The notes beneath the pieces are model-generated. The model was not told where the DNA came from. It saw only the letters and a list, made by a program, of their open reading frames with translations, and did no database searches. From contig OY843768.1 in the NCBI GenBank assembly GCA_963693095.2, positions 1,248,001 to 1,312,000 on the forward strand: a stretch of DNA of 64,000 bases, read 5' to 3'. The stretch is from Cenarchaeum sp. Lineage in GTDB: Archaea; Thermoproteota; Nitrososphaeria; Nitrososphaerales; Nitrosopumilaceae. The position numbers and the translations under genes are program-made. The first letter of the stretch is position 1. The number at the start of each line of letters is the position of its first letter. This document shows positions 1 through 20,800 of this stretch, one piece after another.

Positions 1-775
1 CTCCTCGTACATTGACTCATCGACGTCATGGTGGAGCGAGGCGAGGTTGCGCAGCGGCGCATACGTCCCGTCAGGCGTGAGGCGGTACACGCGGTACTCG
101 TCATCGAGCATGTACGTCACGTGGCGCGCGTCATAGTCGATTATCCCGTCAGCGTCATCATCGACGTGGCCCGCGAGGAGCGGGTATAGCGTTAGCGTGC
201 CGCCGTTGACCTCGATGCCGTGGCTCGGGTTTAGCGACTCGCCGGTGACGTGAACTCCGTGGTTGAAAAAGTTCTGCCACGAGTTGCGCCTGTCATCCCA
301 GACCATCGTCGAGACGACGTCAAACTCTAGTGGCTCGCGGAACGTGTGCGATATCGTGACAATGAGGCACTCGGCAGACGATCCTGGCATGCACTCGCCC
401 ACAACTGACTCTGCGCGCAGCGTCGTGATGTCAATGGCCGATGCCGGATCGTCAAGCGAGACTGTCGGCTCGCCGCTAAATGGCAGGCTTACCCTAATCT
501 CTGCCTGTGACTCTGAAAAGTGCTGCCCGCGCGTGAGGCCAAAGCCCAGGCCGACGTGGCGCACGTTCTGCGGTCCAGTGTCCTCAAAGACCTTGATGAC
601 AGCCGTGTTCTCCTGTCCCGTCTCCACCGTGATTAGCGGGAGCGGCGTGTAATAGTACTCGGCGTCTATCGTGTCGGCATTGTACGAGAATCCGCCTGCG
701 ACCCTGCGCACGCCGGTGCTGTCTATGCCTAGCGTCGGCGGCGTGCAGTCATCGCACCCGTCGCCTCCGCCGCCC
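1..775 (-). other. Thaumarchaeal-type conserved C-terminal domain (partial)
   Basis: GGGDGCDDCTPPTLGIDSTGVRRVAGGFSYN...YYTPLPLITVETGQEN...VFEDTGPQNVRH...CLIVTISHTFREPLEFDVVSTMVWDDRRNSWQNFFNHGVHVTGESLNP. Recognised from memory as resembling the C-termini of large Nitrosopumilus/Cenarchaeum surface proteins; not searched. Confidence 0.7.
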
Positions 776-2832
776 ACGCGTATGCCTTGCGAGCTGCCGC
801 CAAACTGCGTAAAGTGGGTCGTCCAGATGATAATGTCCCCGCCGTCGCGCACGTGGCACTCGGCTGCGAGTGCCTCTGTTTCGGCGTTGGCCAGGGTCGG
901 CGGCGTCTCGGCGTCAACGTCGCCGTCGCACTCGGATATCGCAGTAACTCGCAGGCGGTCCTCGCCGGCCACGTAGAGCGTGTCTCCGTCCTGGACTGCC
1001 TCCATGTAGAAGATGTGGTCTGACTCGGCCACGCCATCAAGCCTGATCAGGACAGGCTTTGAGAAGAGGACCGACTCGGCATCAGACCTCTTGCCCAGCG
1101 TGACTAGGGTCTCCGGCTCACTCGAGGTGATTGCGCGCGCTGCGCGCTCGTTGGCCGTCTGTGCTGCCTCGTCGGTGGCATCAAGTGCGCCGTGGTACGT
1201 CACGTCAGCAGGGCGGCGCGCGAGCTCGGCGAGGAGCGTGCCCGGCGAGACGCCCTCGTCTGTCATGCCGAGCGCGTTGATCACGGTCCCGCCAAATATC
1301 GTGACTTCAGAGCGCCCGAGGCGAATCGTGATGTCAGCGTCAATCGTGCTGTCATCGTCTGTCGTCATGGGATCGCCATCGTCCAAGAGGTCGTCGACTA
1401 GGAGCGTGACAGGCGCCCTGAGCCTGCCGCGATCATCAGGTGCGCTGATCGTGATGGGGAGCGCGCCGCTTGCCGGCACGACTAGAATGTCTGACTCGAT
1501 CTCCCCGTCCTCGTTGATCGTGACCTCTTGTGGCGCAAACGCGTTGCCGGCAAGGTCGGTGATGCCGGCCTCTATCGTGAATATGTACGTGCCCGGCTCT
1601 AGCGCGGGGTCGTACGTCGCAGTCGCGTCGCTTGCCGGAATCGGATCTTCACCCATAATTTGTTCCGGCCTGATCTCCAGCGCGACTGACGGGTCTGTGG
1701 CGCCATCTGGCGTAGAGTCGGCACTCGCAGAGACATCGCCCGTGCCGGTGACGTCCTCGGAGAAGGCGAACTGGACGGTATTTGATGACGTTCTCAGTAC
1801 GGCCTCGATGCTCGGCATGTTGACGTCCACGCGAACCGGCGGATCGTTGGTCTGGTCCTCTTCTGTGAACGTCGCCTCGTTGAGGATGCTCACGGCGTCA
1901 TAGGCTATGATGGTGAACTCTAGAGGCCCGTCGCGCGTCCTCGAGTCGGGCACGGCGATGTCAGCTGATGTGGCCGTCATGTCGCCGTTGCTCAGTGTCA
2001 TCGCCTCATTCTCCGCGTTTAGCGCCGTGATCCTCGGCGCCGCTCCAGCCGAGGACGGCTCGGAGAGCTCTAGCGTGACGCGTATTGCGTCACCCTCGCC
2101 GGCAATGTGCTCATAGGCTCCGGTCTTTGGCACCCTTGGCGTGGCGTCATCGAGGACCACTACTGTGAGCGTGACGATCTCTGGCGGCGCGCCGTCGGCG
2201 ACTCCGCGGACCGCCGTGCCGTCTGCCAGGGCGTTGGCCGCCGGTGAGGCGTCAGTAATATCAGATGACTCGCCTGCCGGCACACGGTATCCCACCGTCT
2301 GCGGGACAGCAGCCGTGTCAGCGGATCCCCATCCGGTCGCCGGCTTATAGTCTGATGGGAGCGTGAGCGTGAGCGTGAGGCCGTTTAGCGTGGCTGAGGC
2401 AAACGTTGTGCTTGCCCCGTCGAGCTCGGCGCTCGTGGGCGGGTCGGCGACCGAGTCATAGTGGAACCAGCGCGAGGCGTCAGGCCCGTCGTCGGCTGCG
2501 GTGACATCCTCGTCAAATGTCACCGTGAGCGTTCTCGAGCTCGCAGTGGCCGGCGTGAATAGCGGGGCCAGGCCGTCAGCAGCTATCACTGCGCGATCGG
2601 ATATGGGACGCATGTTGACCGTCGAGATTATGGGCGTCGCGCCGTCTGCCGTCGGCGCCCTGTACGCCACGAGAGGCATCGCGCCCGAGTTCGGCGCGAC
2701 GTATGCGAGGTATATCGTGTTGGGCTCGGGCTCGGCCCCATCTGAGCATATGTCGACCATGTTGACAAGCGCCTGTACCACGGGGTCTGCGCCGACCGTG
2801 CAGACTGCCGAGAGCGAGGCTGCAGCCGCGCC
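1..2832 (-). CDS. C-terminal continuation of the giant protein in a shifted frame, 3'-partial
   Basis: Hand translation: this frame is open from 2895 to 1 and reads GAAAASLSAVCTVGADPVVQALVN...ADGLAPLFTPATASSRTLTVTFDEDV...IAGEGDAIRVTLELSEP...ITDLAGNAF...WTTHFTQFG...CDDCTPPTLG...YEE, with the same domain types and codon style. It is absent from the ORF track, presumably because it has no in-window stop. Confidence 0.92.
799..1410 (-). other. ZU5/GAIN-like module with HFT motif, copy 2 (just before the C-terminal domain)
   Basis: ...FSKPVLIRL...IFYM...ECDGDVDAETPPTL...ECHVRDGGDIIIWTTHFTQFG, motif at 799-825. Confidence 0.6.
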
Positions 2833-5800
2833 GCGGTCCCGTCGGGATCCACGCCGATGAACCACTCGCCGGCAGCCGTCCTGCCCGCCGTGCTGTCATC
2901 GAGGACGATCCTGATGTACTCGCCAGAGGCTGCCCTGAACGTCGATGCCGTGAACGCGAGTATGTCCTGGAACATGACATTCACAAATGACGCGTTTGCC
3001 TCTAGCGTGTTGCCGCCGCCATCCTGCACGCTTGCGCGCGCGATGCTGACTGTGTGCGCCACGCCCTCGACTGCCGGCGGATCGACGGTGAGGACGACTA
3101 TGCTGTCTGACATGCCTGCCGTGGCGCCGGTGACGGTGAGTCCGGAGACTGTCAGGCCGGCGCGGTTCCTGATGCTGACATCCTCGTTGAACGTGATGTG
3201 GACCTCTGTTGCCGTGTCAAAGACTGCCGAGACTGCCTCTGGCGGGATGGCATCAGCGGCAGTCACGTCAGTCGTCGTCTCTAGCGCGTTGGCCATGTCG
3301 CCCTCCAGGGGCACGTCGGTGAGGCCGTTGGAAGGCATCGTAAAGCTCACAGTCGGCGTGGCGCCCGGTCCCCAGACGGGGAATCGAGCAACATTTGGAT
3401 CAACATAGCCGACATAGAACGGGCCGGTGAACGCAGATGACGCCAGTATCGTGTCGTCGTTCCTCTCAGTACTCATCGGTTGAGGCTCGTCAGCCACCGC
3501 GTTTACGGCCCGCCCTGCGCCATCTGGCGTCACCAGGTCAGATGACGGCACGTCAAGTGTCCACTCTGTCGCCGCCGTCGTGCCCTGGATGGGCTCGCTG
3601 AACGTCACGATGACGTGCGAGGCGTTGAACGTGCGCGCGACATACGTCGGCGGCGTGACGTCAGGCGCATAGTCTGAGGCAGAGCCGCGCTCGATGCTGT
3701 TGCCGTTGGCGTCAGTCACGCGCGTGGGCAGCGTGAGCGCGTACATTACGCGCTCTGTGGCCATGTCCGTCCTCAGCGTGAACGACTCGGCGTTAGCCAC
3801 ATAGTTGACCCTGAGCGAGCCGAGGCGCGGGTTTAGGCTGTTCGTTGGGAGCGTCGTGCCCAGGGAGCCGGCGTTGACAGGCTCGCTCATCGTGACTGTG
3901 ATCATGGTGAGGCTCGTGAACTCTATGGACTCGAGGCTCGGGCGTATGCGGTCCATTGCCGTGACCGTGACGGTGTCAAGCGCGTTGCCGGCTACGTCAA
4001 GGAGCACCGGCGGCGTGCGGGCAGTGAACTCGACTGCCGGCGTCGCCTCGCCGCCTGCAAGCGCGTTGGCCTGCGCGAGGTGCAGCGTGAACTCGTCCCT
4101 CAAGGATGTCGTCTGGTCGCCGACCTGCGCGGCATTGTCAGCAGCGAGGCTTGCTGCCTGCGTGCCGTCTACTGTCCAGTCCGTGTTTGACGTCGTTCCT
4201 GACACGTCCTCGCTAAAGGAGACGGTGAGGCTCTCGAGGCTCACCGTCTGGGCCGTGATCGTCGGCACCGTGCGGTCTATTGCGGGCCGCGTCACCGAGA
4301 GGGCCGTCTCGCGTATCTCGCTCATCGCGCCGCTCACCGCGCCGGTGGCCGACATTACAAAGGTAAAGTCAATGTCCGTCGTGCCGACCTCGACGGTGTA
4401 GCTCGCGGTCCACTCGTCTGTCATGCCGACGCGCGTCATCGTGACTGTATCAGCTGGGGCCGTCTTGCCCACAAAGAGGATCGTCGGCGGCTCGCTGGCG
4501 GACTCATCAAGCGTGACAGATACCCCGATCACGTCTCCGGCGCGCGCATGGCCTGTGTACGGCGCGGCGCGCGGTGTCGTGCCGTCAGACTCGAATACCG
4601 TGTACGATATCGCCGTCGCCATCGGCCCGTCAGTGGCCTCGGCCTCGATGCTCGCAGATACCGCGGCGCGCGCGTTGCCGGCCACGTCAGTGACGGCTGC
4701 AGGTATGGCGATCCTCCACGTGCCTGGCGTCGGCATCACCGTGAACGTTGCTGTCGCCGTGCGATCGCCGTCGTCGTGCGTAAAGGCCTGCCCTGTTGTG
4801 CTGCCGTTTGGCCTCGTGAGCGTTAGCGTGTCAGGTACGCCGTTGACCGGCTCGCTGAACGTGATCGTGAGCGTGCGGTCCGAAAAGGCCGCGTTCGCCG
4901 TCGGCGCGACGCCGTCAGCTGCGGTGACCTGCGCGCCAGAGGGCACGACGTTGCGGCCGGCGTCTGCGAGTCCCGTGCCCGTGTACCTGAGGACCGGCGC
5001 AAATGACGTGTCGGTGATCGTCGTGTACGTGATCGTCACGGTATTGCCCGAGACGTCTGCCAAGGAGATTGCGGCCGTCACGTCAGGCTCCAGCGTCGCG
5101 TCGATGGCGGTCCAGTCGCCTGCCTCAGTGGTTGCCGAGGACGGGAGCGACTCTGAAAGCGTGACTGTGAGCTCGCCTGTCGAGACCGTGGCCGCCGAGC
5201 TCAGGCTGGGCACGCTCGAGTCGACGGTGACGTTCGTGCCCGTCAGGTCGGCCTGCGTGAGCGCCGCCGTGTTGCCGGCAGTGTCGCGTATCGTCAGGCT
5301 GAACGCGAGCGTGCCGCTGGCGTCCGAGTCGAGTATAGTGCGCACGTACGAGTACGCGTTGGACGTGCCTGTGGCCACCGAGTCGGCGGCAGTTGACGTC
5401 CCAAAGAGCGCAATGTCGCCGACTGCCGTGAGGAGCGGCTCGCTGGCCGCGACGTTGACGCGGACGTCGTCATCGATGCCGGCGATCGTGCCCGATGCGG
5501 CGTCGCTGCCCTCGCCCTCGAGCCTCACAGTCGCAGTTACGGTCGCCGTCGGCCGTGCCGTGTCGATCAGGGGCAGCGTTACTGTCGTGCCCGAGGCCAG
5601 GCCGTTCATGTCCGTTATCCTCGCGACGTTGCCGTTGTTGCCGGTGACGAGTATGGAGATGTCCAGCGGGTCTGTGGCCGTGGCGCTGCCATGCTCTGCG
5701 TCCACGACATAATCGTGGCGCCACGTCGAGGCGTCAGCGTCGCCTGCGTCAGTCATGGCCGCCGACGTCGTGCCCCTGCCGGCCAGCGTTATCTGCGGCA

Positions 5801-8800
5801 CCGCAGTCACGTCGTCGTCGAGGTCGAGGGTTATGCGTATCGTGTCGCCTATTCCGGCCAGGTTGGCGTACGTGCCGGACTTGTCGGCCAGCGGCGAGCC
5901 GACCCTCACGGTGAACGTGAGCGTGGAGGCCTCTGGCGGGCTGTACGTCGCGTCCTCGGCGCTCGTGGTGAACGCGATGCCGGCCCTGTCGCGCAGCTCG
6001 GTCGGCAGCGTGACGGTGTGGACGACGTCGGCAGTCGCGCCGTCTACGAGCGTGAGTGTGATCGTGCGGGCCGTGGCGTCATAGTTTACCGGGTCTGTGG
6101 CCGCGAGCGGGACATCGTCCGGATCGGTGCCCGAGTCGGCACCGTCAGGCACAGTCACGTCATACGTGTAGCCCTCTATGGCAAAGTCGGCGCCGGCGAG
6201 TGGCTCAGACAGCGTGATGATGATCGTGTCAGCCTCGGTGAACGCCGCCGAGGAGATCGCCGGCGCCACGCGGTCTATTGTCGGCGGCATCGTCGAGGCC
6301 TCCGTCACCGTGCCCTCCGCACCCGTGTCGCCCGTGACAGTCGCGATGAACGTGAACGCGTTGCCTGTCGCTGCCGTGTCACCCGCGTCTGCCAGAACGG
6401 TGTACTCGGTCGACCAGTCCCTGGCGGTGCTGCCCTGCGTCATCATGACGGAGCTTGTGGAGCCCGCAAGGCGAACCGTGGGTGGCGTGGTGACAGTCTC
6501 GGAGAGCTCGAATGAGAGCACGATCACGTCACCGACGACGGCGTGGTTGTCGTACGGCGCTGTCTTTGCGTTGCCCGTGCTCTGGTCCTGCACCTCATAG
6601 GTGACTGTCGCCGTCGGCGCGTTGGTGCGAATGGCATCCACGGTCACCGTGGCGCGCGCGTTGTCAGAGGCGTCAGTGACCCTATCCGGTATCGTGACCT
6701 GCCACGTGCCGACTGCTATAGGCGTGCTGAGCGCTATTGTCGCAGTATTCGTGCCGTCGGTGTGGTCGACATTGCGCAGGACGGCCGAGCCGGTTGGCGG
6801 CCTGACGCTCAGCGTCGGCATTACGTTGTCGACCGGCTCGCTGAACGTTATGACTATCGAGTTGGCCACAAAGGCCGCCTCAGCCGTCGGGTTTATGCCG
6901 TCAGCGGCGGTGACGGGGCCGCCGCCAAGCGCGTTGCGCGCCGCATCAGCCGGCGCCCCAGAGGACGGCGCCGTGTACGTGACCTCTGGGCTGAACGACG
7001 TGTCCTCGATTCCCGTGTACGTGAGCGTCACGGTACTGCCCGAGACGTCTGCTGTGGAGATGGCGGCCGTCACGGCTGGATCCGTGTCAATTGCCGACCA
7101 GTGTCCGGCATCAGACGTTCCAGTGACTGCCTCGGAGAGCGTGACTGTGAGCGTCGTAGTCGATGCCGTTATCGCAGACACGATGGTCGGCGCGTCGGCA
7201 TCAACGGTGACGTTCGTGCCGTCCACGTCGGCCTGCGTGAGCGTCGCCGTGTTGCCGGCCCTGTCGCGCATCGTCAGGCTGAACGCGAGCGGGCCGTTGG
7301 CATCCGAGTCGAGTATCGTGCGCACGTACGAGTACGCGTTGGACGCGCCGGTATCCACCGAGTCGGCATCAGTCGACGTCCCAAAGAGCGCAATGTCGCC
7401 GACGGCCGTGACGAGCGGCTCGCTGGCCGCGACGTTGACGCGGACGACGTCGTCGATGCCGGCCAGCGTGACAGTGGACGAGTCTGTCGATGCGCCCTCG
7501 AGCCTCACCGTCGTGGTGAGCGACGAGGCCGCCGGTACCGTCCTGTCTATGGCCGGCCGGTCGACCACCAGCGTGCCCACGTGTCCGGTCGTGGCAGTTA
7601 TCGTGCCGGGGTTGTCACCGTCGGTGACCCTTATCGTAAAGTCCAGCTCGGCCGTCTCTGTCGTCGTGGTCGACACGGTGAGGTCATAGCGCCACGTCGT
7701 CGCGTCGCTGTCTGCCCTGTCGTCCATCGATATGCCTGTCGCGCCGGCTATGTCTATGGTCGGCGTGCCAGAGGCGTCCTCGTTGAGCGTGATGTCCAGG
7801 CGGATCGTGTCGTCGATGCCGGCAAAGCCTGCGGCGGCGCCAGTCTTTGCCGGAAGCGTGGCGGCACCGTCATGGACCGTGACGGATATCACCGTGGCCA
7901 TTGGCGGAATCGTGTCCCTCTTTGGCACCGTGACGTCGCTGTCGTCAGTCGCCGCGTCCCCGTCTGGGTTGGATATGGGCACGTACGCGTTAGTCGCCGT
8001 GTCCATGACTGCCGCATCGATGACGACCTTGTACGCCTCGTACGTGTCGTCTGCGCTCAGGCGGATCAAGACCATCGAGGCAGCAGAGTCCGAGGAGCCG
8101 GGCATGTATCTGACTCCGTCATCGTCGTATGTCGCGTCAAGTGTCAGCTCGGCCGAGCGCGTCGCAGGCTCGGTGAACCCATAAACCTCAAAGTTGGCCG
8201 CGACGACGGTGGACATGACAAGACCCTCATTGAACGTGAGCGTTATCGTGCGCGTCGTGTCATCGTGCGACGTGTTGGTGACTGTCGGCGCGACGGCGTC
8301 GACTGTCACGTTCGTGGCCGTCAGGTCGGTCTGCGTGAGCGTCGCCGTGTTGCCCGCAGTGTCAGTCATGGTCAGGCTGAACGCGAGTGGGCCGCTGGCG
8401 TCCGAGTCGAGTATCGTGCGATCGTACGTGTACAGGTTGGACCCGCCGTCCGTGACTGCGTCGGCGTTCACGCCGGTGCGGCCAAAGAAGACAATGTCAG
8501 TGGCGGCCGTGACGAGCTCCTCGCCGGCCGTGAGGCGCACGAGGACATCATCACCGATGGCCGCCACAGTGTTGGCTGCCGCGTCGGCGGACTCCCCTGA
8601 GAGCATTACGGCGGCGGTGAGCGCCGTGGACGTCGGCAGCACCGTGTCGATCTCGGGCAGCGTGACTGTCGTGCCCGAGGCCAGGCCGTTCATGTCCGTT
8701 ATCCTCGCGACGTTGCCGTTTGTGCCGGTGGCGACGATGAGGATGTCCAGCGGGGCCGACGTCGTGGTGCTTGCGTGCGTTGCTTCCACGACGTGGTCGT

Positions 8801-11800
8801 GTCTCCACGTCGAGGCATCAGCGTCGCCTGCGTTGGTCATGGCCACCGATGTCGTGCTCCTGCCTGCCAGCGTTATCTGCGGAGGCGCCGTCACGTCCTC
8901 GTCGAGGTCTAGGTCTATGCGTATCGTGTTGCCGATGCCGGCCAGGTTGGCGTTTGCGTCAGTCTTTGCGGCCAGCGGCGAGCCGGTCATCACGGTGAAC
9001 TCGAGCGTGGAGGCCGCTGGCGGGTCGTACGTCGCGTCATCTGTCCTCGTGGTGAACGCGATGCCTGCCCCGTCGACCAGCGCGGTCGGCAGCTCTACTG
9101 TGTAGGCCACGTCGGCAGTCGCGTCATCCTCGAGCGTTAGCGTGATCGTGAGGGCCGTGGAGTCATAGTTTACCGGGTTTGTGCTTGCCAGATCTATGAC
9201 GTCCCGATTGGCGTCCGCATCGTCCGGCTTGTTCGTGTTGTCAGGGGCAGTCAGGCCGTACGTGTATCCCTCTATGGTCGAGTCGGCTCCGGTGAGGACC
9301 TCAGAGAGCGTGATGACGATCGTGTCAGCCTCGGTGAACTCTGCTGAGGTTATCCTCGGCGCCACGCGGTCTATTGTCGGCGGCGTCGCCAGGGCCTCTG
9401 TCACAGGGCGCGTCGAGCCCGAGTTGCCCTCGATAGTCGCGGTGAACGTGAACGGGCTGCCGGCCGCTGCCGTGTCACCCGTGTCTGCTAGAACGGTGTA
9501 CGTCGCGCGCCACACGTCAGTCGAGCCGACCTGAACCATCGTGACGGGGTTTGTCGTCGCGCCCGCAAAGAGGACAGTCGGCGCCGTGGTGACGGACTCT
9601 GATAGCGTGAGCGAGAGCCTGATCATGTCGTCGACGCGCGCGTGGTTTGCGTACGGCGCGGTGCGCTGCGTTGTGCCGTCAGACTCGAATACCGCATAGG
9701 CTGCCGTCGCAGTCGGCGCCGCGCTGCGCTCGGCAGTGAGACTCGCCGATGCTGCGGCGCGCGCGTTGCCGACCACGTCGGTGACTGCTGGCGGTATGGT
9801 GACCGTCCACGTGCCGGCCTCTATGTCCAAGTCGGTGATGGAGCTTATTGTCACAGTCGTCGCGCCGTCGGTGTGGTCGGCCGTGCGCGAGACTGCCTCC
9901 GTTGTTGGTGGCTTTACGCTCAGCGTTGCCGGCACGTTGTAGACGTTCTCGTCGAACGTTATGACTATCGAGTTGCCCGAGAACACGGCGTCTGCTGTCG
10001 GCTCGACGCGGTCGATTATCGGTGCCGTGGCCGGATCGGCGTTGACGGTGCGCGTCGAGCCCGTGTCGCCCGTGAGCGTCGCGTCAAACGTGAGCCTGCC
10101 GTCTATGCCCGATGCGACAGTCGTCGTCTCTACCTCGTATGACCTCTGCCACTCGTTGGTGTCGCCGACGCGCACCATGTTGCCGCCTGTTGCCGTCCTG
10201 CCCACAAAGGTGACCCTCGGGGCAGTCTCGACGTTCTCGTCGAGCGTGAGCGAGAGGATGATCGTGTCGCCTGCGCGCGCGTGGTTCTGGTACGGCGAGG
10301 GCCTCGCGTTGCCGGTGTCCCGGTCCTGCACCTCGTAGGCGACTGTTGCCATGGGGGCCGCCCTGCGCTCGGCCATGACGCTAGTCGTGGCGCTCGGGTT
10401 GGTCGCCACGTCGGTGACTGTTGTCGGTATGGTGACTGTCCACGTGCCGACTGTTATCGTCGGGGTGAGGTCTATTCTCACAGTCGCCTCGCCGGTGTTG
10501 TGGCGTGGGGTCTCGGTCGTGGTCATGGGCGTGGTCGTAGGCTCCGTGACGCCCATTGTCGTCACGCCGGTGACAGGCTCGCTGAACGTTATGACGATAG
10601 AGTTGCCCGAAAAGGCCGCCGTGGCAGTCGGCGCGACGCCGTCAGTGGCGGGTTGCTGGCTGCCGGACACCAGGGCGTTGCGGCCGGCATCGACTATGCC
10701 CGTGCCCGTGTACTCTACTCTCGGCGCAAATGACGTGTCTGCGATCTTCGCGTACGTGAGAGTCACCGTGCTGCCCGAGACTACCGCCGAGGAGATCATT
10801 GCAGTCGTCGAGCCATCCACTGCAGACCACATGCCGGCTCCCGTGACTGCCTCAGATAGCGTGACTGTGAGCGTCGTGGTGGATGTAGTCGCGGCAGACA
10901 CTATGGTCGGCGCCGTGGTGTCGACTGTCACGCGCGCCCCCGCGTTGCCGTGCGTCAATGCGGAGGCCGCCGCGTTGCCGGCCCTGTCGCGGAACGTGAC
11001 GGTGAACTCGATATCGCCGTCGGTGTCATCCGCCACTATCGTGCGCACGTACGCGTACGCGTTGGTGCCGGTGCTCTCGACAGAGTCGGCGTCCTCTGCG
11101 GCTGAGCCAAAGAGATCAATGTCGGCGACCCGCGCGTCGAGCGCCTCGCTTGCCGTGAGCGTCACGCGAAGCTCGTCGCCGATGCCGGCCGTGGTGACTG
11201 TCGCAGAGTCAGACGATGCGTCCTCGAGTCTCACGCTAGTCGTCACCGTCGCCGTCGGCGCTGTCCTGTCTATGGTCGGCCGACTCGGGCTCAGCGTGCC
11301 CACGTGTCCGGTCGTCGCCGTTATCATGCCGGAGGTTGTGCCGTCGGTGACCGTTATCGTAAAGGCCAGCGCGCCCTCGGTCGTCGTGCCTGACACGTCG
11401 AGGTCATAGCGCCATGTCTTTGCGTCGCTGTCTTCACCGTCATCCATATTCTCGCCAGTCTCGCCGGCCACGTCTATGGTCGGCGTGCCAGAGGCGTCCT
11501 CGTCGAGCGTGATGTCCAGGCGGATCGTGTCGTCGATGCCGGCAAAGGTCGCATACTGGCCGGTCTTTGCCGTGCTCGCGCCCGGCGTGCCGTCGTGGAC
11601 GATGATGGATATCTCTGTTGCCCGCGGGGCAGTCGTGTCGTCCTTTTCGACGTCGATGTCGCTGTCGTCAATCAGGGGGTTGTCATCAGGGTTGACTATG
11701 GGCACGTACGGGTTCGCTTTTGTGTCCGTGACCGAGTCCGTTATGATGACCTTGTAGTCGTCATGGTCGTCGTCGGCGGCGAGCCTGATCGAGACCGTCG

Positions 11801-14800
11801 AGGTCTCAGAGGCCGAGTCGCCGGCCGTGTAGAGGACTCCGTCCGTGTCGTATGTCGTGTCGAGCGCCAGCGCAGATGCGGAGCGCGTATGGGCCGAATC
11901 GTCAAACCCGCGCACCTCAAAGTTGGCCGCCACTGCCGTGGACGCGAGAAGGCCCTCGCTGAACGTGAGCGTTATCTCGCGGTTTGTCTCAGCGTATGTC
12001 GCAGTCATCACGAACGGCGCGACCCCGTCAGTCGCCGTGACGTGCGGGGAGGCCGTGGCAGGCACGACGCCCGGCGCGCCAGAGGCCGTTATCGTTCCCA
12101 TCCCGTCATACTGCACGATAGGCGTGACGCCTGTGCCCATGGTTGGGTAGACGAGCGTTATCGTGTCAGACGGCGTGATCGACACGTCTCCCATGTCCAG
12201 CGTCGCCGACGGCGACGTGGCGGCCGTGTTGTGGGAGCCGGCCCGCAGCGAGGTTGGCTGTACCGAGCCCAGCATCCAGTCCGAGACGCTCGTCTCGCCG
12301 AGGGCCAGTGTGCCGCTGAACGTGACTGCCGTCGTCTCGCGGCTCGTAGTCTGTGCAGACATCACAGTCGGCGTGTTAATCGTCCCGCCCGTCGCCGGCG
12401 CAGTGATCGTGAACGTCGCTGCCGCTGCCAGCGCGTTTGGCGTGCTAGAGGCGTCAGTCACCGTTGTCGGGACCGTCAGCGTGTACCTCGCGTTGGCCGT
12501 CGCGTCGCTTGTCGTGACGTGGACCGTGTATGGCGCGGAGGATCCCATGTTTTCCGCCGAGGAGACCGTGAGGTCCGTGGCACCGCCCAGTCCCACGATG
12601 GTCAGGCCGGTCACGGTGTCAGTGTCAAGGGCCTCGCTGACTGTGAGGACTATGGTCGAGAGGACGCTAAACGCCGCCGAGGAGACCGTTGGCGCGGTGA
12701 GGTCGAGTATGGCGGTGACCGAGCGGCTCCCGGAGGCGACTGCGTTCATTGCCACGTCTGTGACTGCGGCGTCGATGGTGACTGCGTACATGGCAGACTG
12801 TGTAGGCGCGGTGTCCAGGGTAAGGGTCACGTGCGGGGTCGGCGCCGAGGAGGTCGGCGCGACATAGGCGGCGGTGAACGCCACGGCGTTGCTGTTGCTC
12901 ACGAGATCAAAGTTGGCCGTCAGGACGGTGTTGCTGTCGAGTGCCTCGCTGAAGGGTATCCATATGCGGTAGACTGTCGGGTCAGTCGCGTCGCGCCTGA
13001 ACTCTGTGCCGTCAATGACAGTCGGCGGCGTCTCGTCCCGTAATGAGCGCGTCGCGCTCGTATCCGTGGCCGCGAGGGGGTTGTTTGCGTCATCGAACAG
13101 GCCGAACGTGTTTGAGCCAACTGTCGTGCTGGGGAGCGTGACTGTGTGGGCCGTGTCGAGCGCCGAGTCCGAGGCCAGCGTGAGCGTGATTGTCGAGGTG
13201 GTGGCCTGCTCGGCATAGACGGCCGAGCCGGTGAGGGTCACGGTGCCGCTGGGGATCGTTGTGGGGTAGCTGGCAATGTCTGTCGGAACCTCCGCCAGGC
13301 TCACATCACCAGAGCGTTCTCCCGGCTCACGAGCCGTCATGTGTTCGCTGAACGTGATGGTGAGCTCGTCCGTATCGGTGAACATGGAGGACATGACCGT
13401 GGGGGCGGTCTTGTCGATGCGCACGCGGTATCCCGCGTTCGGCACAGCGACGCCGTCACCGTCAGTCGCCCCTGTCGTGAGATCCTCGTGCGTGAACGTC
13501 GCGGTGTTGCCTACGACATCGCGCACCGTGAGCTCGAACGTGACGAGACCCTCCGGCGATCCAGCTCCGACATGGTGTGAATAGTTGTAATACCCGAGAC
13601 CGGCGTCGACGGCACGCTGACCCGTCACCTCAAAGGCCGTGTCGGGGAAGAACCTGATGTCGGCGGGCGCAACGGTGTCGCCGGCGCCACCGGTAATACT
13701 GTCACCCAAGATGGGCCTGTTATCCACGTAGAGGGTCTCGGTGGGATCTATGCGCACCCACACGCCTTCAGTACTTTCACTGCTCAGGCCGGCCGGCGCA
13801 ATTGGCACTCTTGGATCCAGACTGTTCTCCCTTGTTCGCATAGTCAGCGAGTCGCCGACGTCGAGCGCCGGCGGCACGCCGTCTGCGGCGTCAACAGGGT
13901 CTGCCGGCACGGCAGTCGTGCCGGCCACCAGGGCGGCGGACGCCGGTGGCGTGTACGTGACTATTGGTACGGAGGCCGTGTTGGAGAGCTCTGCGTGCGT
14001 GATGAGCAGCGACGTGACGGCCGGGGTGGAGCCCAGCACCTGCATGACTGCCGGTGTCGAGCCATCAACTGGCGTCGCGGTGACCTGGTTCATCCCGTCG
14101 GCAGTCACCGTCGCGATGCTCGATATGGCAAGGCTCGCGGCGGCCTCGGGGGCCGCCTCGTTGAGCGCCCAGTCGGCCACGTCGAGCGTGCCGGTGAGGC
14201 TCCCGTCGTCAAACGTGACGAGCGTCGTGGTGGCCGTCCTTGTTCTGGCGTCAAGCGGCCAGTCGTACACTGCGGTAGCCGACATGATGCCACCTGTTTC
14301 AGGCTGGCTGTTAAAGTTCCTGACAGCGTGGTCGGGGTTAACCGTGTACACCCTGCCAGGCATGGTGTCAACGCTGCTGTCCAGCGTGAGCGTGTACGTG
14401 TCCGAGGACGTGCGCTCGGCGGACTCTACGGCCAGGCTGCCCCTCGGCGATGTCACCGTCCACTCGTCGTCTGTCGCATAGTTCGCGACGCCAGTCACGA
14501 ACACGACATCCTCGCTGAACGTGACTGTGATCGTGTGCTCACCCGCAAATGCGGCCGACGTGATCGTGGGATGCGTCGTGTCCCCTGCCATGGCCACCGT
14601 GCTGCCGGTCTGCACCCTGTTGGGCGTGTCCCCTTGGGGCACCACGTCGGTGAGGCCTCCGGTCGCCGGCTGCGTGTATGTCACCGTGGGCGTGTCAGTG
14701 AGCGCCAGGAATGGGTCGGTTTTGAGGGCACCGACATACAGCAGGCCGTCGAACTCGTGGGCGGCCAGTATGGTGGCGCTGCCCTTGAGGCGCGGAGCAT

Positions 14801-17800
14801 TGTTGCCCGCACCAGGATCCTGAGTCGCCGTGACCAGCGTCGGCGTGGTGGTGCCCGTCTTGACGATCGCCCAGTCTGCCACGGCGGTCATGCCCTGTAT
14901 GGGCTCGTCGAACTTTACTGCGACGTGTGTGGTGTTGAACACGCGCGCCGTGAACGTCGGCGCCGTGGTGTCAGTTTGCGTCGACGCCGTGTACGTCGCC
15001 GTCGTCATGGCGTCGGCGTCTATCGCGTTGGCCGCGGATGAGACGTCGGCTATCGCGTTGGCCGCGTGGATCGTGTGCTCCATGCCGGCGGCCACGCCGG
15101 TGGTGAGCTCCAGCGTGTACGTCGAGTCGTCCGTGCGCGCCGCCGAGTCCAGGCCGACGGGGGTGCTGCCGAGCTCCACCGACCAGCCGGCGTCTCCCAT
15201 AATGGTAGTCACGTTGGTCACGTCCTCGGTGAACGTGACTTCGATCATGTCTGCGGCCGTGAACCTGGCCGAGTCGATGGACGGGTCGATCATGTCGGCC
15301 GCTGTGACGTGGGGCGAGAGCGTCGTGGCGAGCGGGGTGCCGGCGGCGTTGTCCAGCGAGTTGGCGTTGGTGCCTGTCGGCCGCGTGTACGTCACTATCG
15401 GCGTCGCGTCGGCGTCCTGCGCGTTGAGCGACGCGAGCGTGAGCGTGAGCGTCATGGTTGCCGTCCCTATCGTGAGCGTCGTGCCGGCGTCTACTGGCGA
15501 GCCGCCTGCTGCCACCGAGGCCGGCGCCACGTTGGCGACCCTCCACTCGTCGGCGTCCGTCTCGCCGTCAAGCACCGCAGAGAACGTGACGATGACTGAC
15601 GTCGGCGTGTCAAGCGTCGCGCCCGTTATCGTCGGCGCCGGCGCCGTGTACTGCAATGTCCTCTCCACGGCCGCAAACGCGTTGTCGGCCAGGTCGAGGA
15701 TCGTGGCCGGCACCTTTACGAGATAGCCCCCGTTCGTGTCAGCGTTGACGTTTATGGTGACAGTCATGCCGCTCGCCGTTGCACCGTACGGCGTCAGGCT
15801 TCCGGACGGGGGCGTGACTGATATGTCGCCGGTGACCGTGACGGTCTCGCTGAACGTGAGGACGATGTCATTGCCCACAAACGCCGAGCTCACAAACGTC
15901 GGCGCGACGCGGTCGATCGTCGGCGGCGTCGTAGCCGACAGGGTCGTCTCGTCCACAGGGCGCGTCGAGCCCGAGGCAGCCGTCACCGTCGCGTCAAACG
16001 TGAACGCGCCCTCTATGGAGCCCGTAGTCTCGACGAGGTACGACGCGCGCCACTCGTTGATCCCGGTGACTTGGGTCATCGGTACTGCGTCAGCAGTGGC
16101 AGTCTTGCCCACAAAGAGAACGCTAACCGAGCTCGCCGCGCCGTCAAGCGTGATCGAGAGCCTGATCGTGTCACCGGCGCGCGCGTGCGAGGCGTACGGC
16201 GAAGCCCTCTCGGTGGTCGTTGTGCCCTCAAAGACCGTGTACGCCACGGCAGTCGCCATCGGCGCGGCAGTCGGCGTGTACGTCGCAGTCGCGTCAGTGG
16301 CAGCAAAGACGGAGCCGGTGGCAAGCGAGCCGGCGTTGCTGACGTACGCGTTGCCCCTGACGTCGGTGACTGACGTGGACGGCCTGATGACATAGAGGCC
16401 GTTTTCAGTCGCCGACTCGGCGAGGTTTAGCGCAATAGTCGTCGTGCCGGCCGTGTACTCTACAGGCGTCGTCGTGCCGAGCGCGAGAATGTCGCGCAGG
16501 CTGCCCGCATCAGAACCGTCCGGACCGCTGATCTCAAAGTTGGCCACCACGACGGTATCGGCGTCGAGGGCCTCGCTGGGCGTGAGCGTGATCGTGTCAG
16601 CATCAAGGAAGGCCGCCGTGAACGTCGGCGATGCCGCATCACCCAGTGCGCCTGCGCTCACCGTGGCTCCAGGCGCTGCAAGCACCGTCGTGTCGTCTCC
16701 GGTGCCCGATGAGAGAACCGGCGAGGACTGGCCGGTCGACCCGGTGTACGTGACTGACTCCCTTGCCGCCGTGCCGGCGTCTGCGTGGGTCAGCGTGAGC
16801 GTATAGTCGTCATCGAGCGTCTGCGTGGCTGCGCCATCAGGGGCGACTCCCGTGGCCGGCGCGCCGTTTACCGCCCACTCGGCCGCCACCGTTGTCCCGG
16901 AGACTGGCAGGCTGAACGTGACGAGGGTCTGCGTGGCTGACGTGCTTGCCGCGACGAACGTGAGTGGCGGCTCGGTCGTGGTGGCCCCAAACTGCGTCAT
17001 GTGGCGCGTCCAGATGATGACGTCGGTGCCGTCCTCAAAGTAACAGTCCTCGCCGGCGCCAAGCGTCGGCGCAGCCGTGAGCGTCACGCTGTCTGCGCAC
17101 TCTGGGACGGCGTTGACAACGTTGTCAGCGGCACCGGAGAGATAGAACGCGCGCATGGCGCCGGTGCTCGACGCATCGCCGGCTATGCGCAGCGATGCGG
17201 GCGCCGAGAGCGATATGCCCAATGACTCGCTGCCTACCTCCACGAGCGGGACCGAGGAGAGCGCGTCGCCGCGCGCGCCAAGTGCCCTTGCGGCCGCGTC
17301 AGACTCGATGATCGCCGTGATGGCGGCCGCTGCCGCAGTGTCCGCGTCAGTCGGCGACGTGGTTGGAGCCGAGTATGTCTCATCCTTGTCGAGTGCGGCG
17401 CGCTCCAGGAGGACCGCCTCGGGAGCGCTGCCAAACGTGAACGTCGTTGCCGACGCGATGACGAGCTCGGCGCCGTCAATTCTCGCAGTTATCGGCGCGT
17501 CGACTGTGTCAGGATCCGTGCCGGTTCCCTTCACGCCATCAAGACTGTCGAGGTTGAGCGTCAGGCCAGTCGCGCGTGGGGGCTCTATGGTCTCCAGCGT
17601 GTACGTGCCTGCCTGCAGTGCGGCCCGCATCGATATGCTCACTGATGTCGCCGACGTCGCCGACGTCGCCGTCGTCGAGGCGATCGTGTGGTACTGCTGT
17701 GCGCCGGCCGGTCCGACGATCCTAAAGGCCTGCGGACCTGCAGAGGTCGTGTCGATCGCCGACGTGAGCGTCGCGACGACTGTCTGCGCGCCAGACGGCG

Positions 17801-20800
17801 CGGCGGCCGTCAGCGTGGCAGTGCCGGCGGCGGCCACGTGGAACACGGCGGCCGAGTCGGCTGCCAGTGCGGCTCCGCGTATCGTGTCGCTGCCCGGCAC
17901 CGACGTGTCAGCCTGCCTGATCCCGTCAGCGGCCCTTGCCGTCACCAAGTACGAGCCCTCTGCGGTTATGGCAGCATCCATGCCCAGCGTCACCACGTTG
18001 CTCAACGAGCCATGGAGCGCGGCAGTGGCTATCCCCAGCGGCGCCGTGGACGGCGAGGGGCCGGTGACCTCAAAGGCCGAGGCGCCAACCGATGCCGGAT
18101 CGATGTCCTCGCTGAACAGGAGCCTCACGGTCATGCCGCCATCTGGCAGGTCCACGGCGATCAGCGCAAGCTCGTCCTCGCCTGCCACGTTAAAGGAGGC
18201 CGAGAGCGGCGCCATGGCGCGGCCCGAGGCCTCGCGCAGGCCATACGAGGCGTCCCTGGCGACGACTGTGGCCGCCGTGGCGTCATCGGGCACGATATAG
18301 ACGTCGGTGTCTATGCGGTCCGTGGCGACCGGGACTCCGGTGGCCTCCACGGTCGTTGAGCGTATGCCCGTTATGCTCACGTCGACGCTGCCAGAGAGCG
18401 TAGAGGCGACGAGTATCGCGCGGCCCGCAGTCGCCTCCACGGCGGCGGCCGCATACGCCCCAGTGCCGGCCGTGCGCATCTGGACTGACGGTGTGCCTGA
18501 CACGTCCTCGTTGAGGAGTATCGTGCGCGTCGAGGATGATGACTCAAAGACCGTCCTTACAGTCGGCGCGCCTGCTGCCGTGGCGTGGACCGCGGCAGTC
18601 GAGACGGCCGCACCATTGGCGCCGGCGATGTCGTGGCCTGCAGCAGTGCCCTGCTGGCTCGTGATCGGCGCGCCTGCCGCGTCAAACGTCGGCGGACCGC
18701 CCAGGGACGGCCGGTACGAGACGAGGGCGCTTGAGGTCTCTGTGAGCGCCTCGTGCGTGAGCGTCAGGACGGGCGACGTGCCCACCGCGGTCACGGTGAT
18801 GGCAGTGACGGCGCGGTCATCGGCGGCCGACGGTGTCGTGGCCGGACTCGCGCCGGCAATGTCCTCAACGACCCACTTTGCCTCGTCAAGATCAGTTGAC
18901 GTCGTGATCCTCGCATGGAGCGCGGCCTCAAACGCGACTGTCGTCTGCGTCGGCGATACTGTCACTGCCGTGTACGTGAGGGCCGCCGGCGGGGCGCTGT
19001 ACGTCGCCGAGACGGCGCGCGTGTTCTCGCCGGTGAGCGCCTGCGCGTTGCCTGCCAGGTCGGTGACTGTGGCCGCAGGAGTGAGCGTGTACGTCGCGCC
19101 GCCAGTCAGCGCCGAGTCCAGGACGATCGTGACGGTGGTGTACTGGGACGCGCCCGAGCCGACGCCAGAGTTGACCTCGGAGATGAGGATCGCCGCGTCG
19201 CCCGGCTCGGAGTTGTCGGCGATCAGCGTGACAGTCAGCGTGGCGCCTGCCGAGTCAACAGCGCTCACCGGCAGGCTTGCCCTGGTGAGCGTGGCAGGCG
19301 CGATCCGCTCGTCGAACATTATCCTGATCGCGTTGGGCGCCGATTCCGAGGACGGCGCTGCCACAAACGAGACTGTCGCTATAGTCGGCGCCGTGCGGTC
19401 TATCGTCGGCGGTGTCGGCGCCGAGTGGAGCCTGTCGAGGACCTGCTCGAACGTTGCGCTGCTCGGGTCTGTGTCCACCACGGGGCCTATCGGCACGCCA
19501 TTGTTCGCCGCGATGAGCGGCGCGGCGTGGCCAGAGGAGCCTGTGATCGTCGGGCCGGCAGACATGCCTTCGGGGTGCGGTATCTCAAACGTGAACGGCC
19601 CGTTGAGCAGGCCCGCGTTCTGCGCGGCAGTCTCGACTGTGTACGTCGTGGTCCACGTGTTGTCCCTGGCCGAGACTGCGCTCATCGGCACGCCGAGGGA
19701 CTCGTCAACGTTCGCAGTCACTGCGTCATCGGCTGTGACCTTGCCGACAAGGCGGACCTGCGGCGCCGGCGTGACTGCCTCGTTGAGCGTGACTGTCAGC
19801 CTAATGTCATCGCCGGCCTTTACGTACCACGCAGTCGGGTCATCCTCTGGATCCACGGCGACCTTTATGCCCGAGTCGTTCTCCTTTAGGACCGTGTACT
19901 CTATTGCAGTCGCCGCGCGACTTGGCGCCTCTAGGGTGACGTCGATGCTAGTGACCAGCTCGTCGCGCAGTTGCGTGACGCCAGTAACGCCGGCGATGCT
20001 CAGCGAGTACGCGCCGGGCGCGACTGGCGAGACGAGTGCGATGCCGACGGTGGGTGGCGGGACGCCAGAGTACCACGCATGCGATATGCCGACGACCGGA
20101 CCGGCATCAGTGCTGCTGACTCGCGGGCCGCGCAGCTCAAAGGTCGCGCCGGCGAGCGTGGAGGATGAGGAGGGCGCCAGCACGGTCTCGCCGTTGACAA
20201 CTGACGAGGTGACGCGCCGATAGCTGACCGAGGTGTCAGTCAGGCCAGTGCTATCTGCCGCATCAGGGGCGACGAGAACGCAGCGGAAGACAGAGACTCC
20301 CTGCTCTGTGGCAGTGCCGCACACCTCGGCGCCCACCATGTCGTCCAGGCCGGCGGCCCTGAGGCCAAAGGTGACGAGTAGGCTCGAGGGCGTCGTGAAC
20401 GCCACGGACTCGACTGGAGGCCTCATGTCGATCGGCGATATGCGCACCGTGTCAGCCGCGTCGTACGGGTTGGCGGGGCTCGCCGTGTCAGCCAGGCCGG
20501 TCATCGTTACGGTGTACTCGTCGGTATCTGGCAGCGGGCTTGCCAGCGTTAGCGTGATCGTCCGTCTATCGCCATCATACGAGACGGCAGTCGCGCGAGT
20601 GGCATGGAGCGGCACTGCCGGGCCGGCGTCGCTTGGGTTCACCCTCGGGCCGTTCACCACAAACGTTGCCATGTCCGTGCCGGCGACGCTCTCGTGGAAG
20701 GGTATCGAGATCTTGCCCTCTGAGGTGCGCATGGCATTGATGACGACCGGCGGCGCGCCGTCGACGGCGACTTGGCGCTCAGTCGTCACCGCCGTGCCAG

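Follow-up and report, generated by a model that had tools for sequence, protein, structure and literature searches.

Two GAIN/ZU5-like modules with a conserved H-x-T motif in a giant surface fiber gene of an ammonia-oxidizing archaeon: candidate self-cleaving joints

We analyzed a 64,000-nucleotide stretch of DNA (here, referred to as the window) from Cenarchaeum sp. (assembly GCA_963693095.2, contig OY843768.1). The window corresponds to C1:1248001-1312000 in a 2.0-Mb genome of two contigs and has a G+C content of 66%. The genome encodes an archaeal AmoA (E 3e-117), therefore we take the organism to be an ammonia-oxidizing archaeon. The minus strand of the window is almost wholly taken up by one open reading frame (ORF), which spans 2628-63998 and is open at the window's right end, and a second minus-strand frame occupies positions 1-2865. 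Past the right end of the window, the giant frame extends a further 4,177 codons to a methionine followed by a hydrophobic signal sequence. This N-terminal signal is the sole KD19 hydropathy window >1.8 in the whole giant protein, and, judged by eye, it resembles a cleavable signal peptide that ends in Ala-Ala-Ala. Big_5 was found in every 4,000-amino-acid (aa) piece of the giant ORF (E 2e-35 to 2e-8). We refer to the predicted product, a protein built largely of Ig-like repeats, as the giant fiber, and the coordinates of its features are given in Table 1.

Two copies of a second kind of module lie within these frames. Module A, which is internal, carries the motif W-T-R-H-M-T-Q-F-G (17012-16986, minus strand, giant frame), and module B, which is terminal, carries W-T-T-H-F-T-Q-F-G (825-799, minus strand, downstream frame). 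The modules are homologous (BLASTP E 3e-14, 30% identity over 202 columns) and have both cysteines and the residues W, T, H, T, Q, F, and G in common. An earlier reading of the DNA letters by themselves (the original prediction) had proposed two ~200-aa modules with these motifs and had listed the same shared residues; its positions proved exact, and the alignment bears out the residues. Both cysteine columns are invariant in 30/30 aligned sequences, and the thaumarchaeal copies of the module contain an inserted helix of ~45 aa. A Big_5-like repeat ends ~20-40 residues ahead of the module, and an Ig-like repeat abuts the module. We detected no further copy in a hidden Markov model (HMM) search of the whole giant ORF. 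Across the complete genome translated in six frames (4.0 million codons), the pattern W-x2-H-[FLM]-[TS]-x-[FYW] occurs 10 times; because nine of these occurrences fall in module copies, the motif is not a product of chance.

As assembled, the two motifs sit in different reading frames, with a 1-nt gap at ~2833/2834 relative to two paralogs. Contigs from all four public sequencing runs that we used (two studies) contain an extra C behind position 2833, supported at depths of 254.6/254.6, 759.7/759.7, 100.8/100.8, and 3.48/3.48. With this C added, one frame runs from the methionine and encodes 25,519 aa. The ortholog in the complete same-genus genome G004 is unbroken over 25,697 codons and shares the N-terminus, and a paralog in the genome under study holds an internal H-M-T module and a terminal H-F-T module within one frame of 14,652 codons. 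Given the extra base in every run, the continuous frame that it restores, and the unbroken ortholog and paralog, we conclude that the frameshift is an assembly error or a strain-specific lesion and that the true gene is one ORF of 25,519 aa. The final 69 codons of the giant frame, an Arg/Ser-rich out-of-frame tail, are probably not translated in the true gene. The Big_5-like repeat in the second frame (residues 345-444) was found at E 1.9e-4, under the cut-off. Within window positions 2619-3333, there are 12 listed differences from the public-run contigs, several of them at full depth (e.g., 2728, 2795, 3117, 3127), which indicates that the runs hold a slightly different strain or consensus.

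Cutting at both motifs would yield pieces of 19,757 aa (counting the signal peptide), 5,396 aa, and 366 aa. The original prediction had put the distal part at >15,000 aa, and the ORF, which extends beyond the window, raises this to ~19,700 aa. Its middle part of ~5,400 aa and its terminal domain are both recovered, but only on the reading that the assembly introduced the frameshift.

We modeled module B with AlphaFold2 using a 30-sequence alignment, which replaced a single-sequence run with a pLDDT of 35. The model (pLDDT 91.6, pTM 0.88) is a beta-sandwich with a sole helix inserted at residues 88-103. H206-F207 closes the strand at residues 199-207, T208 is at the turn, and the final strand comprises residues 209-213. 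In an exhaustive structural comparison of the model with 48,161 chains, the best matches were ankyrin ZU5 domains (Z 7.8, 7.7, 7.4) and adhesion G protein-coupled receptor (GPCR) GAIN domains, namely CD97 (Z 7.5, 7.4), BAI3 (6.8), Gpr126 (6.4), CELSR1 (6.3), latrophilin-3 (5.7), GPR97 (5.4), and GPR56 (5.2), together with UNC5b (Z 6.0). The alignments to CD97, BAI3, Gpr126, CELSR1, and latrophilin-3 cover 123-141 residues at a root-mean-square deviation of 3.7-4.6. Overall, 12 of the 13 rows with Z >= 5.2 are, by entry title, ankyrin or UNC5b ZU5 domains or adhesion-GPCR GAIN domains, as expected for the ZU5/GAIN-like fold that had been proposed from the sequence. Lower-ranked rows include the FIIND of CARD8 and NLRP1 (Z 4.6-4.2) and the Nup98 autoproteolytic domain (Z 3.4-3.2). 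The aligner warns that a Z below 8 may reflect a common arrangement, and such a value cannot decide the fold by itself; what counts in the fold match is therefore how consistent the list is and in which register the chains align. An NCBIfam scan of both modules found no family, and a profile search against PDB sequences returned chance ice-binding-protein rows only (E >= 0.28).

The register of these alignments bears directly on the H-F-T motif. Nine structural rows stop at model residue 207, the Phe of H-F-T, and eight of the chains are GAIN, FIIND, or Nup98 fragments. The chain ends aligned to this residue are 382 of 5kvm_A (GPR56), 1212 of 6x6c_E (NLRP1), 863 of 1ko6_A (Nup98), 249 of 7qu8_A, 566 of 8hc0_A, 827 of 6v55_A, 854 of 8vti_A, and 187 of 7crv_C, and chains that run beyond the site align to model residue 214-215. 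We take the cleavage sites of NLRP1 and Nup98 to be F1212/S1213 and F863/S864, respectively. For GPR56, the cut has been described at H381-L382/T383 (PMC13123842). Because the ends of GAIN, FIIND, and Nup98 chains align to residue 207, the Phe of H-F-T sits where known self-cleaving relatives have their P1 residue.

A profile run against 1.84 billion representative proteins yielded 27 proteins at E <= 0.001, and word-seeded searches added more. These homologs are surface proteins of DPANN archaea, Thaumarchaeota, Patescibacteria, and Bacillota (one, at 48% identity, is labeled Thaumarchaeota by its source), and they carry PG-binding, LysM, SLH, aBig_2, or PGF-pre-PGF regions. They have a common C-terminal signature, C ... 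C ... D-G-x-D-[LIM]-[IV]-I-W-T-x-H-F-T-x-F. In proteins of Bacillota and Patescibacteria, the same domain precedes SLH, PG-binding, or LysM anchors. Profile A2 matched a Paenibacillaceae LRR-SLH protein (E 2.6e-25), and the Paenibacillaceae domain in turn retrieved 58 proteins, many with SLH, including one that combines Metallophos, 5'-nucleotidase, and SLH. Two strong module copies, as in the giant fiber, are also present in four other homologous proteins (P0006, P0012, P0016, and P0028).

An HMM built from the 30-sequence alignment gave 81 domain matches in 56 fetched proteins. The H-x-T/S motif is kept in 56/56 strong matches (E < 1e-20; 52 proteins), which comprise 48 FT, four LT, three FS, and one HFT without an aromatic residue two places on. 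By the original prediction's own terms, poor conservation of His and Thr among homologs would have counted against it; His followed by Thr or Ser is present in every strong match. The remaining 25 matches are weak, fall in four proteins, and are degenerate repeats in which His and Thr are kept in 0/25. The split between 56/56 and 0/25 is the pattern that a catalytic motif would show. In the four repeat proteins (P0004, P0005, P0011, and P0024), the C-terminal half of the fold recurs in 4-9 copies per protein, with a cysteine and D-x-[IV]-I retained and His and Thr lost; these proteins look like a non-catalytic offshoot of the family.

The source names of two homologs raised the question of whether the module is the PGF-pre-PGF domain (TIGR04213). 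We rejected this identification. TIGR04213 matches a separate downstream domain (in P0026, it lies at 714-848 and the H-F-T motif at 675-686), and it has no match in either module of the window. The DPANN homologs P0026 and P0023 have an H-F-T domain followed by a PGF-pre-PGF domain, which would make an archaeosortase-type anchor the counterpart of the bacterial sortase or SLH anchor.

The window's gene is one of a family. We found 10 module copies in nine giant frames of 3,062 to ~25,600 codons in this genome, and eight of the copies run straight into a ~340-aa domain that starts C-x2-C-T-P-P-T-L-G. The giant frames have the same cassette, consisting of the module, a Gly-rich linker, C-x2-C-T-P-P-T-L-G, and the ~340-aa domain. 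Nine of the 10 copies match W-x2-H-[FLM]-T-x-F, and the tenth reads H-F-T-D-V. Together, the nine frames account for 263 kb, or 13% of the 2.0-Mb genome, and the system is therefore clearly important to the organism. The giant frame at 50437-83904 has the C-terminal domain and no recognizable H-x-T module. Among 24 other genomes of the same family, 13 also have the module, and it was not found in the 16 genomes searched from other families of the order.

The history of the internal module can be followed in the ortholog and the paralog. The G004 ortholog (L016-L019, G004:C1:1045001-1125000) matches the window's gene collinearly, in blocks of 69-88% identity, and contains the terminal module only. 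In the window's gene, the internal module is part of a ~2,400-aa block (window ~16,300-23,500, full-frame residues 17,684-20,087) that is 79% identical to residues 6,698-9,096 of the 14,652-codon paralog, with flanking repeats that are far less close. This block has no counterpart at 60% identity or higher in the G004 ortholog. The pattern suggests recent gene conversion between giant genes. Because of the 79% identity to the paralog and the missing block in the G004 ortholog, the internal joint appears to have been moved by recombination and to be dispensable.

The predicted C-terminal fragment begins with the final strand T-Q-F-G-G, which is followed by the Gly-rich linker, C-x2-C-T-P-P-T-L-G, and the ~340-aa conserved domain. 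It is 50-94% conserved in the nine giant ORFs of the genome and in same-genus genomes. The domain (L001:1213-2265, equal to window 1-765 plus 288 bases to the left) has no relative in Pfam, NCBIfam, PDB sequences, or the ESM Atlas (best Atlas value 0.85, unnamed clusters), and the fragment contains no transmembrane-like segment (maximum KD19 1.14). In other genera of the family, the first ~180 aa of the domain recur as the end of longer frames (up to 8,617 codons) and also within short ones (262-400 codons). The last ~160 aa occur in this genus only and contain helical L-x-R-L-x-E-R-I-A-x-E-I-N-L-A-E-L-A-M repeats. The most likely role of the C-terminal domain, by analogy, would be to hold the fiber on the cell envelope, because it is the sole part shared by paralogs with very different fibers and because MAIN proteins, which are described below, carry their anchor at the C-terminus.

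Two publications provide the background for interpreting the modules. Brogan and Rudner (bioRxiv 10.64898/2026.05.12.724683, May 2026) describe GAIN-like MAIN (Microbial Autoproteolysis INducing) domains in ~15,000 bacterial and archaeal proteins with a mean size of 158 kDa. According to the preprint, YfkN of B. subtilis is cut between F and S of HFS, the cut is lost in S1346A and rescued by Thr, the fragments co-purify, and shear-triggered release is proposed (10.64898/2026.05.12.724683). The terms "tandem," "two MAIN," "multiple MAIN," "cysteine," and "disulfide" are absent from the preprint's main text (10.64898/2026.05.12.724683). Zhang et al. (2012, PMC3482391) placed ZU5, GPS, and the Nup98 domain in a single superfamily, pointed out ZU5 in large surface proteins of bacteria, and suggested autoproteolytic processing to be a general feature of these proteins.

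Our computations support the reading of this gene as a self-cleaving giant adhesin. We consider it probable that the giant fiber is cut by two MAIN-type domains of the GAIN/ZU5 superfamily and that the resulting pieces are held together non-covalently and can be released by pulling. The protein would be a secreted fiber of ~25,500 aa made of Ig-like repeats, with one autoproteolytic domain at the internal H-M-T and another at the terminal H-F-T. By analogy with GAIN and MAIN, the His of each folded domain would activate the Thr hydroxyl, which would attack the carbonyl of the preceding Phe or Met. The N-to-O acyl shift would produce an ester that is hydrolyzed by water, so that the new C-terminus would end in H-F or H-M and the new N-terminus would begin with T-Q-F-G. 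Each cut would fall in a tight turn ahead of the last beta-strand (T-Q-F-G-G/A). This strand would stay hydrogen-bonded in the sandwich, joining the pieces with no covalent bond, and pulling could extract it and free the distal parts.

A more elaborate version of this reading seems to us possible but doubtful. In this version, the giant fiber is a serial mechanical fuse with two strand-in-sandwich joints, the internal one recombined in from a giant paralog, and such break points could be moved along archaeal fibers to tune the amount lost under load, while the ~340-aa domain is a new archaeal envelope anchor common to fibers that occupy 13% of the genome.

Several points weigh against two-site cleavage with force-dependent release. 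In terms of fold, Z values of 5-8 are within reach of unrelated beta-sandwiches. Foldseek returned no row at E <= 0.001 against the PDB (all E >= 0.067; its best weak rows were ankyrin ZU5, CD97, BAI3, and UNC5b), and no Pfam family was matched at E <= 10 by either module, including ZU5 (PF00791) and GPS (PF01825). The modules are putatively of MAIN type, and the MAIN domains whose tests the preprint presents are all bacterial (10.64898/2026.05.12.724683). The strand retained after cleavage is short in the model (~5 residues), so the grip on the fragments may be weaker than in GAIN. In the C-terminal fragment, there is neither a membrane segment nor a known anchor motif, so that either end of the fiber could be cell-proximal, and the G004 ortholog manages without the internal joint. 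Finally, the run contigs that support the single frame differ from the window at several bases, and their origin in the source sample is possible.

The shortness of the retained strand and the missing anchor motif or transmembrane segment would also fit cleavage that serves constitutive maturation or release instead of a force fuse, with the fiber shed into the matrix or the C-terminal domain freed. Zhang et al. proposed ZU5 cleavage of this kind, releasing filamentous toxins at the surface (2012, PMC3482391). We think that constitutive release is unlikely, though it is the strongest of the alternatives. The N-terminus looks like a cleavable signal peptide, which leaves no other anchor visible, and the C-terminal domain is conserved over nine paralogs with differing fibers, as would be expected for a shared anchor. 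Moreover, the fragments of YfkN are described as associated until denatured (10.64898/2026.05.12.724683).

It is also conceivable that the modules have the ZU5/GAIN fold and are never cleaved, serving as structural or ligand-binding sandwiches in which H-x-T is kept for folding. Ankyrin ZU5 domains, which are among the best structural matches, are not known to be self-cleaving. In addition, the same-fold relatives that lack His and Thr serve as repeated structural units, and cleavage among archaeal members of the family is a matter of prediction. However, a motif that is invariant in the strong archaeal and bacterial matches and wholly lost in the degenerate repeats fits catalysis better than folding, and nearly all of the bacterial MAIN domains whose tests are presented in the preprint were cleaved (10.64898/2026.05.12.724683), which makes this alternative improbable in our view. 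Least credible, and in our estimation very unlikely, is a real frameshift at ~2833 that yields a 24,500-aa product lacking the terminal module and the C-terminal domain and leaves the downstream frame as a remnant: the assembly as given does have two frames, with a stop at 2628-2630, but the extra base is at full depth in every run, the ortholog and the paralog are continuous, and the downstream frame, which lacks its own start signal and signal peptide, is well conserved (82% DNA identity to the paralog).

The genes that flank the giant gene encode Topoisomerase VI A, a plastocyanin-like protein, a TPR protein, prephenate dehydratase, and unknowns, and we found no functional link between them and the giant fiber.

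Table 1. Positions of the giant fiber's features in the window and of the related giant frames in the genome.
Feature	Position	Strand	Basis
Met and signal peptide of giant ORF	genome C1:~1324268, outside window	-	hydrophobic N-terminus
Giant ORF, window part: Ig-like (Big_5) repeat fiber	2834..63998	-	no stop codon; Big_5 matches
Internal GAIN/ZU5-like (putative MAIN-type) module A, 215 aa as aligned	16974..17618	-	HMM E 2.6e-40 and 2.5e-39
Two conserved cysteines of module A (codons 17097-17099, 17043-17045)	17043..17099	-	alignment
H-M-T of module A	16995..17003	-	homologous to H206-F207-T208 of modeled module B
Predicted scissile bond of module A	Met (16998-17000) / Thr (16995-16997)	-	motif position
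Frameshift site, assembly one base short	2833..2834	.	1-nt gap relative to two paralogs; public-run contigs
Out-of-frame tail of giant frame, Arg/Ser-rich, stop at 2628-2630	2628..2833	-	frame and paralog comparison; run contigs
Fiber continuation in second frame, including Big_5-like repeat	1432..2833	-	Big_5 residues 345-444
Terminal GAIN/ZU5-like (putative MAIN-type) module B, 215 aa, modeled sequence	787..1431	-	model; fold matches; HMM E 1.2e-50
Two conserved cysteines of module B: C168 (928-930), C192 (856-858)	856..930	-	alignment
H206-F207-T208 of module B	808..816	-	between strands 199-207 and 209-213
Predicted scissile bond of module B, turn between final two beta-strands	Phe (811-813) / Thr (808-810)	-	
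Predicted C-terminal fragment, 366 aa, 270 in window	1..807, continues to genome C1:1247713	-	conservation
Giant frames	genome C1: 50437-83904, 337113-385487, 564210-608165, 756958-766149		cassette
Further giant frames	genome C1: 766777-775962, 1348731-1362071, 1545613-1563813, 1644576-1655069, and the window's gene		cassette

The principle of such joints is already in print, as a prediction from 2012 and experiments from 2026, which limits the surprise of finding them in the giant fiber. The original prediction had presented the system as an archaeal parallel of adhesion-GPCR shedding; as an idea, this is no longer new, since the May 2026 preprint draws the same parallel for bacterial and archaeal MAIN proteins. 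New in the giant fiber are the pairing of a terminal with an internal domain, the size of the protein, and the ~340-aa C-terminal domain of no known family. Should the protein indeed be cut, three non-covalently joined pieces with built-in break points would make up what is predicted as one of the largest proteins of archaea. The idea of mechanical release through GAIN and MAIN domains would then extend to ammonia-oxidizing archaea, and the giant fiber would offer a natural case of two serial joints for probing force thresholds. The C-terminal domain, for its part, would be the means by which these archaea keep fibers as long as 25,000 aa attached to an envelope of the S-layer type.

Among known self-cleaving systems, one parallel is SEA with its bacterial counterpart SEAL (PMC10556640), for which autoproteolysis in a beta-sheet, non-covalently associated fragments, and a mechanical release model are described, as we propose for the giant fiber, although the fold and the motif are different. 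The C-terminal autoproteolytic domain of Nup98 has an H-F-S type cut at its very end, with a short tail left in a groove, and its chain end (1ko6_A, residue 863) aligns to model residue 207; in contrast, its structural score is weak (Z 3.2-3.4), and it belongs to nuclear-pore biology. ZU5 domains are autoproteolytic in PIDD and in the FIIND of NLRP1 and CARD8. Those of ankyrin and UNC5b provide the best structural matches (Z 7.8-6.0), and ZU5 shares with the giant fiber an H-F-S/T motif at the C-terminal edge, but the giant fiber's modules have no Pfam ZU5 match and are extracellular, not cytoplasmic. Zhang et al. (2012, PMC3482391) describe a C-x-H thiol active site, whereas the conserved triad of the giant fiber is H-x-T.

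A further parallel is provided by the GAIN/GPS domains of adhesion GPCRs such as CD97, BAI3, GPR56, and latrophilin. Their subdomain B has the same fold (Z 7.5-5.2), and they have the H-L/M-T motif, a scissile bond at the equivalent structural position, a cysteine pair near the site, and a large adhesive ectodomain. Unlike these receptors, the giant fiber has neither a helical subdomain A (the model contains one inserted helix) nor a following seven-transmembrane region; its modules have no Pfam GPS match, and the retained strand is shorter. MAIN is also among the closest systems. Here, the differences are that the giant fiber's host is an archaeal ammonia oxidizer, the nucleophile is Thr rather than Ser, and the modules have two invariant cysteines and, in the thaumarchaeal copies, the ~45-aa inserted helix. 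The giant fiber is also far from typical in being 25,519 aa long, in having a second, internal copy 5,396 aa upstream, and in ending with a region of no known family rather than a sortase, SLH, or wall-binding anchor. In other respects, the two systems agree: both are large proteins with a GAIN_B-like beta-sandwich and an H-hydrophobic-S/T motif at the turn before the last strand, both appear to be ordered as signal peptide, adhesion domains, the domain itself, and C-terminal region, and both invite the idea of a releasable ectodomain. Our module profile also finds the domain in SLH proteins of Bacillota, and the protein that combines Metallophos, 5'-nucleotidase, and SLH has the very architecture reported for MAIN.

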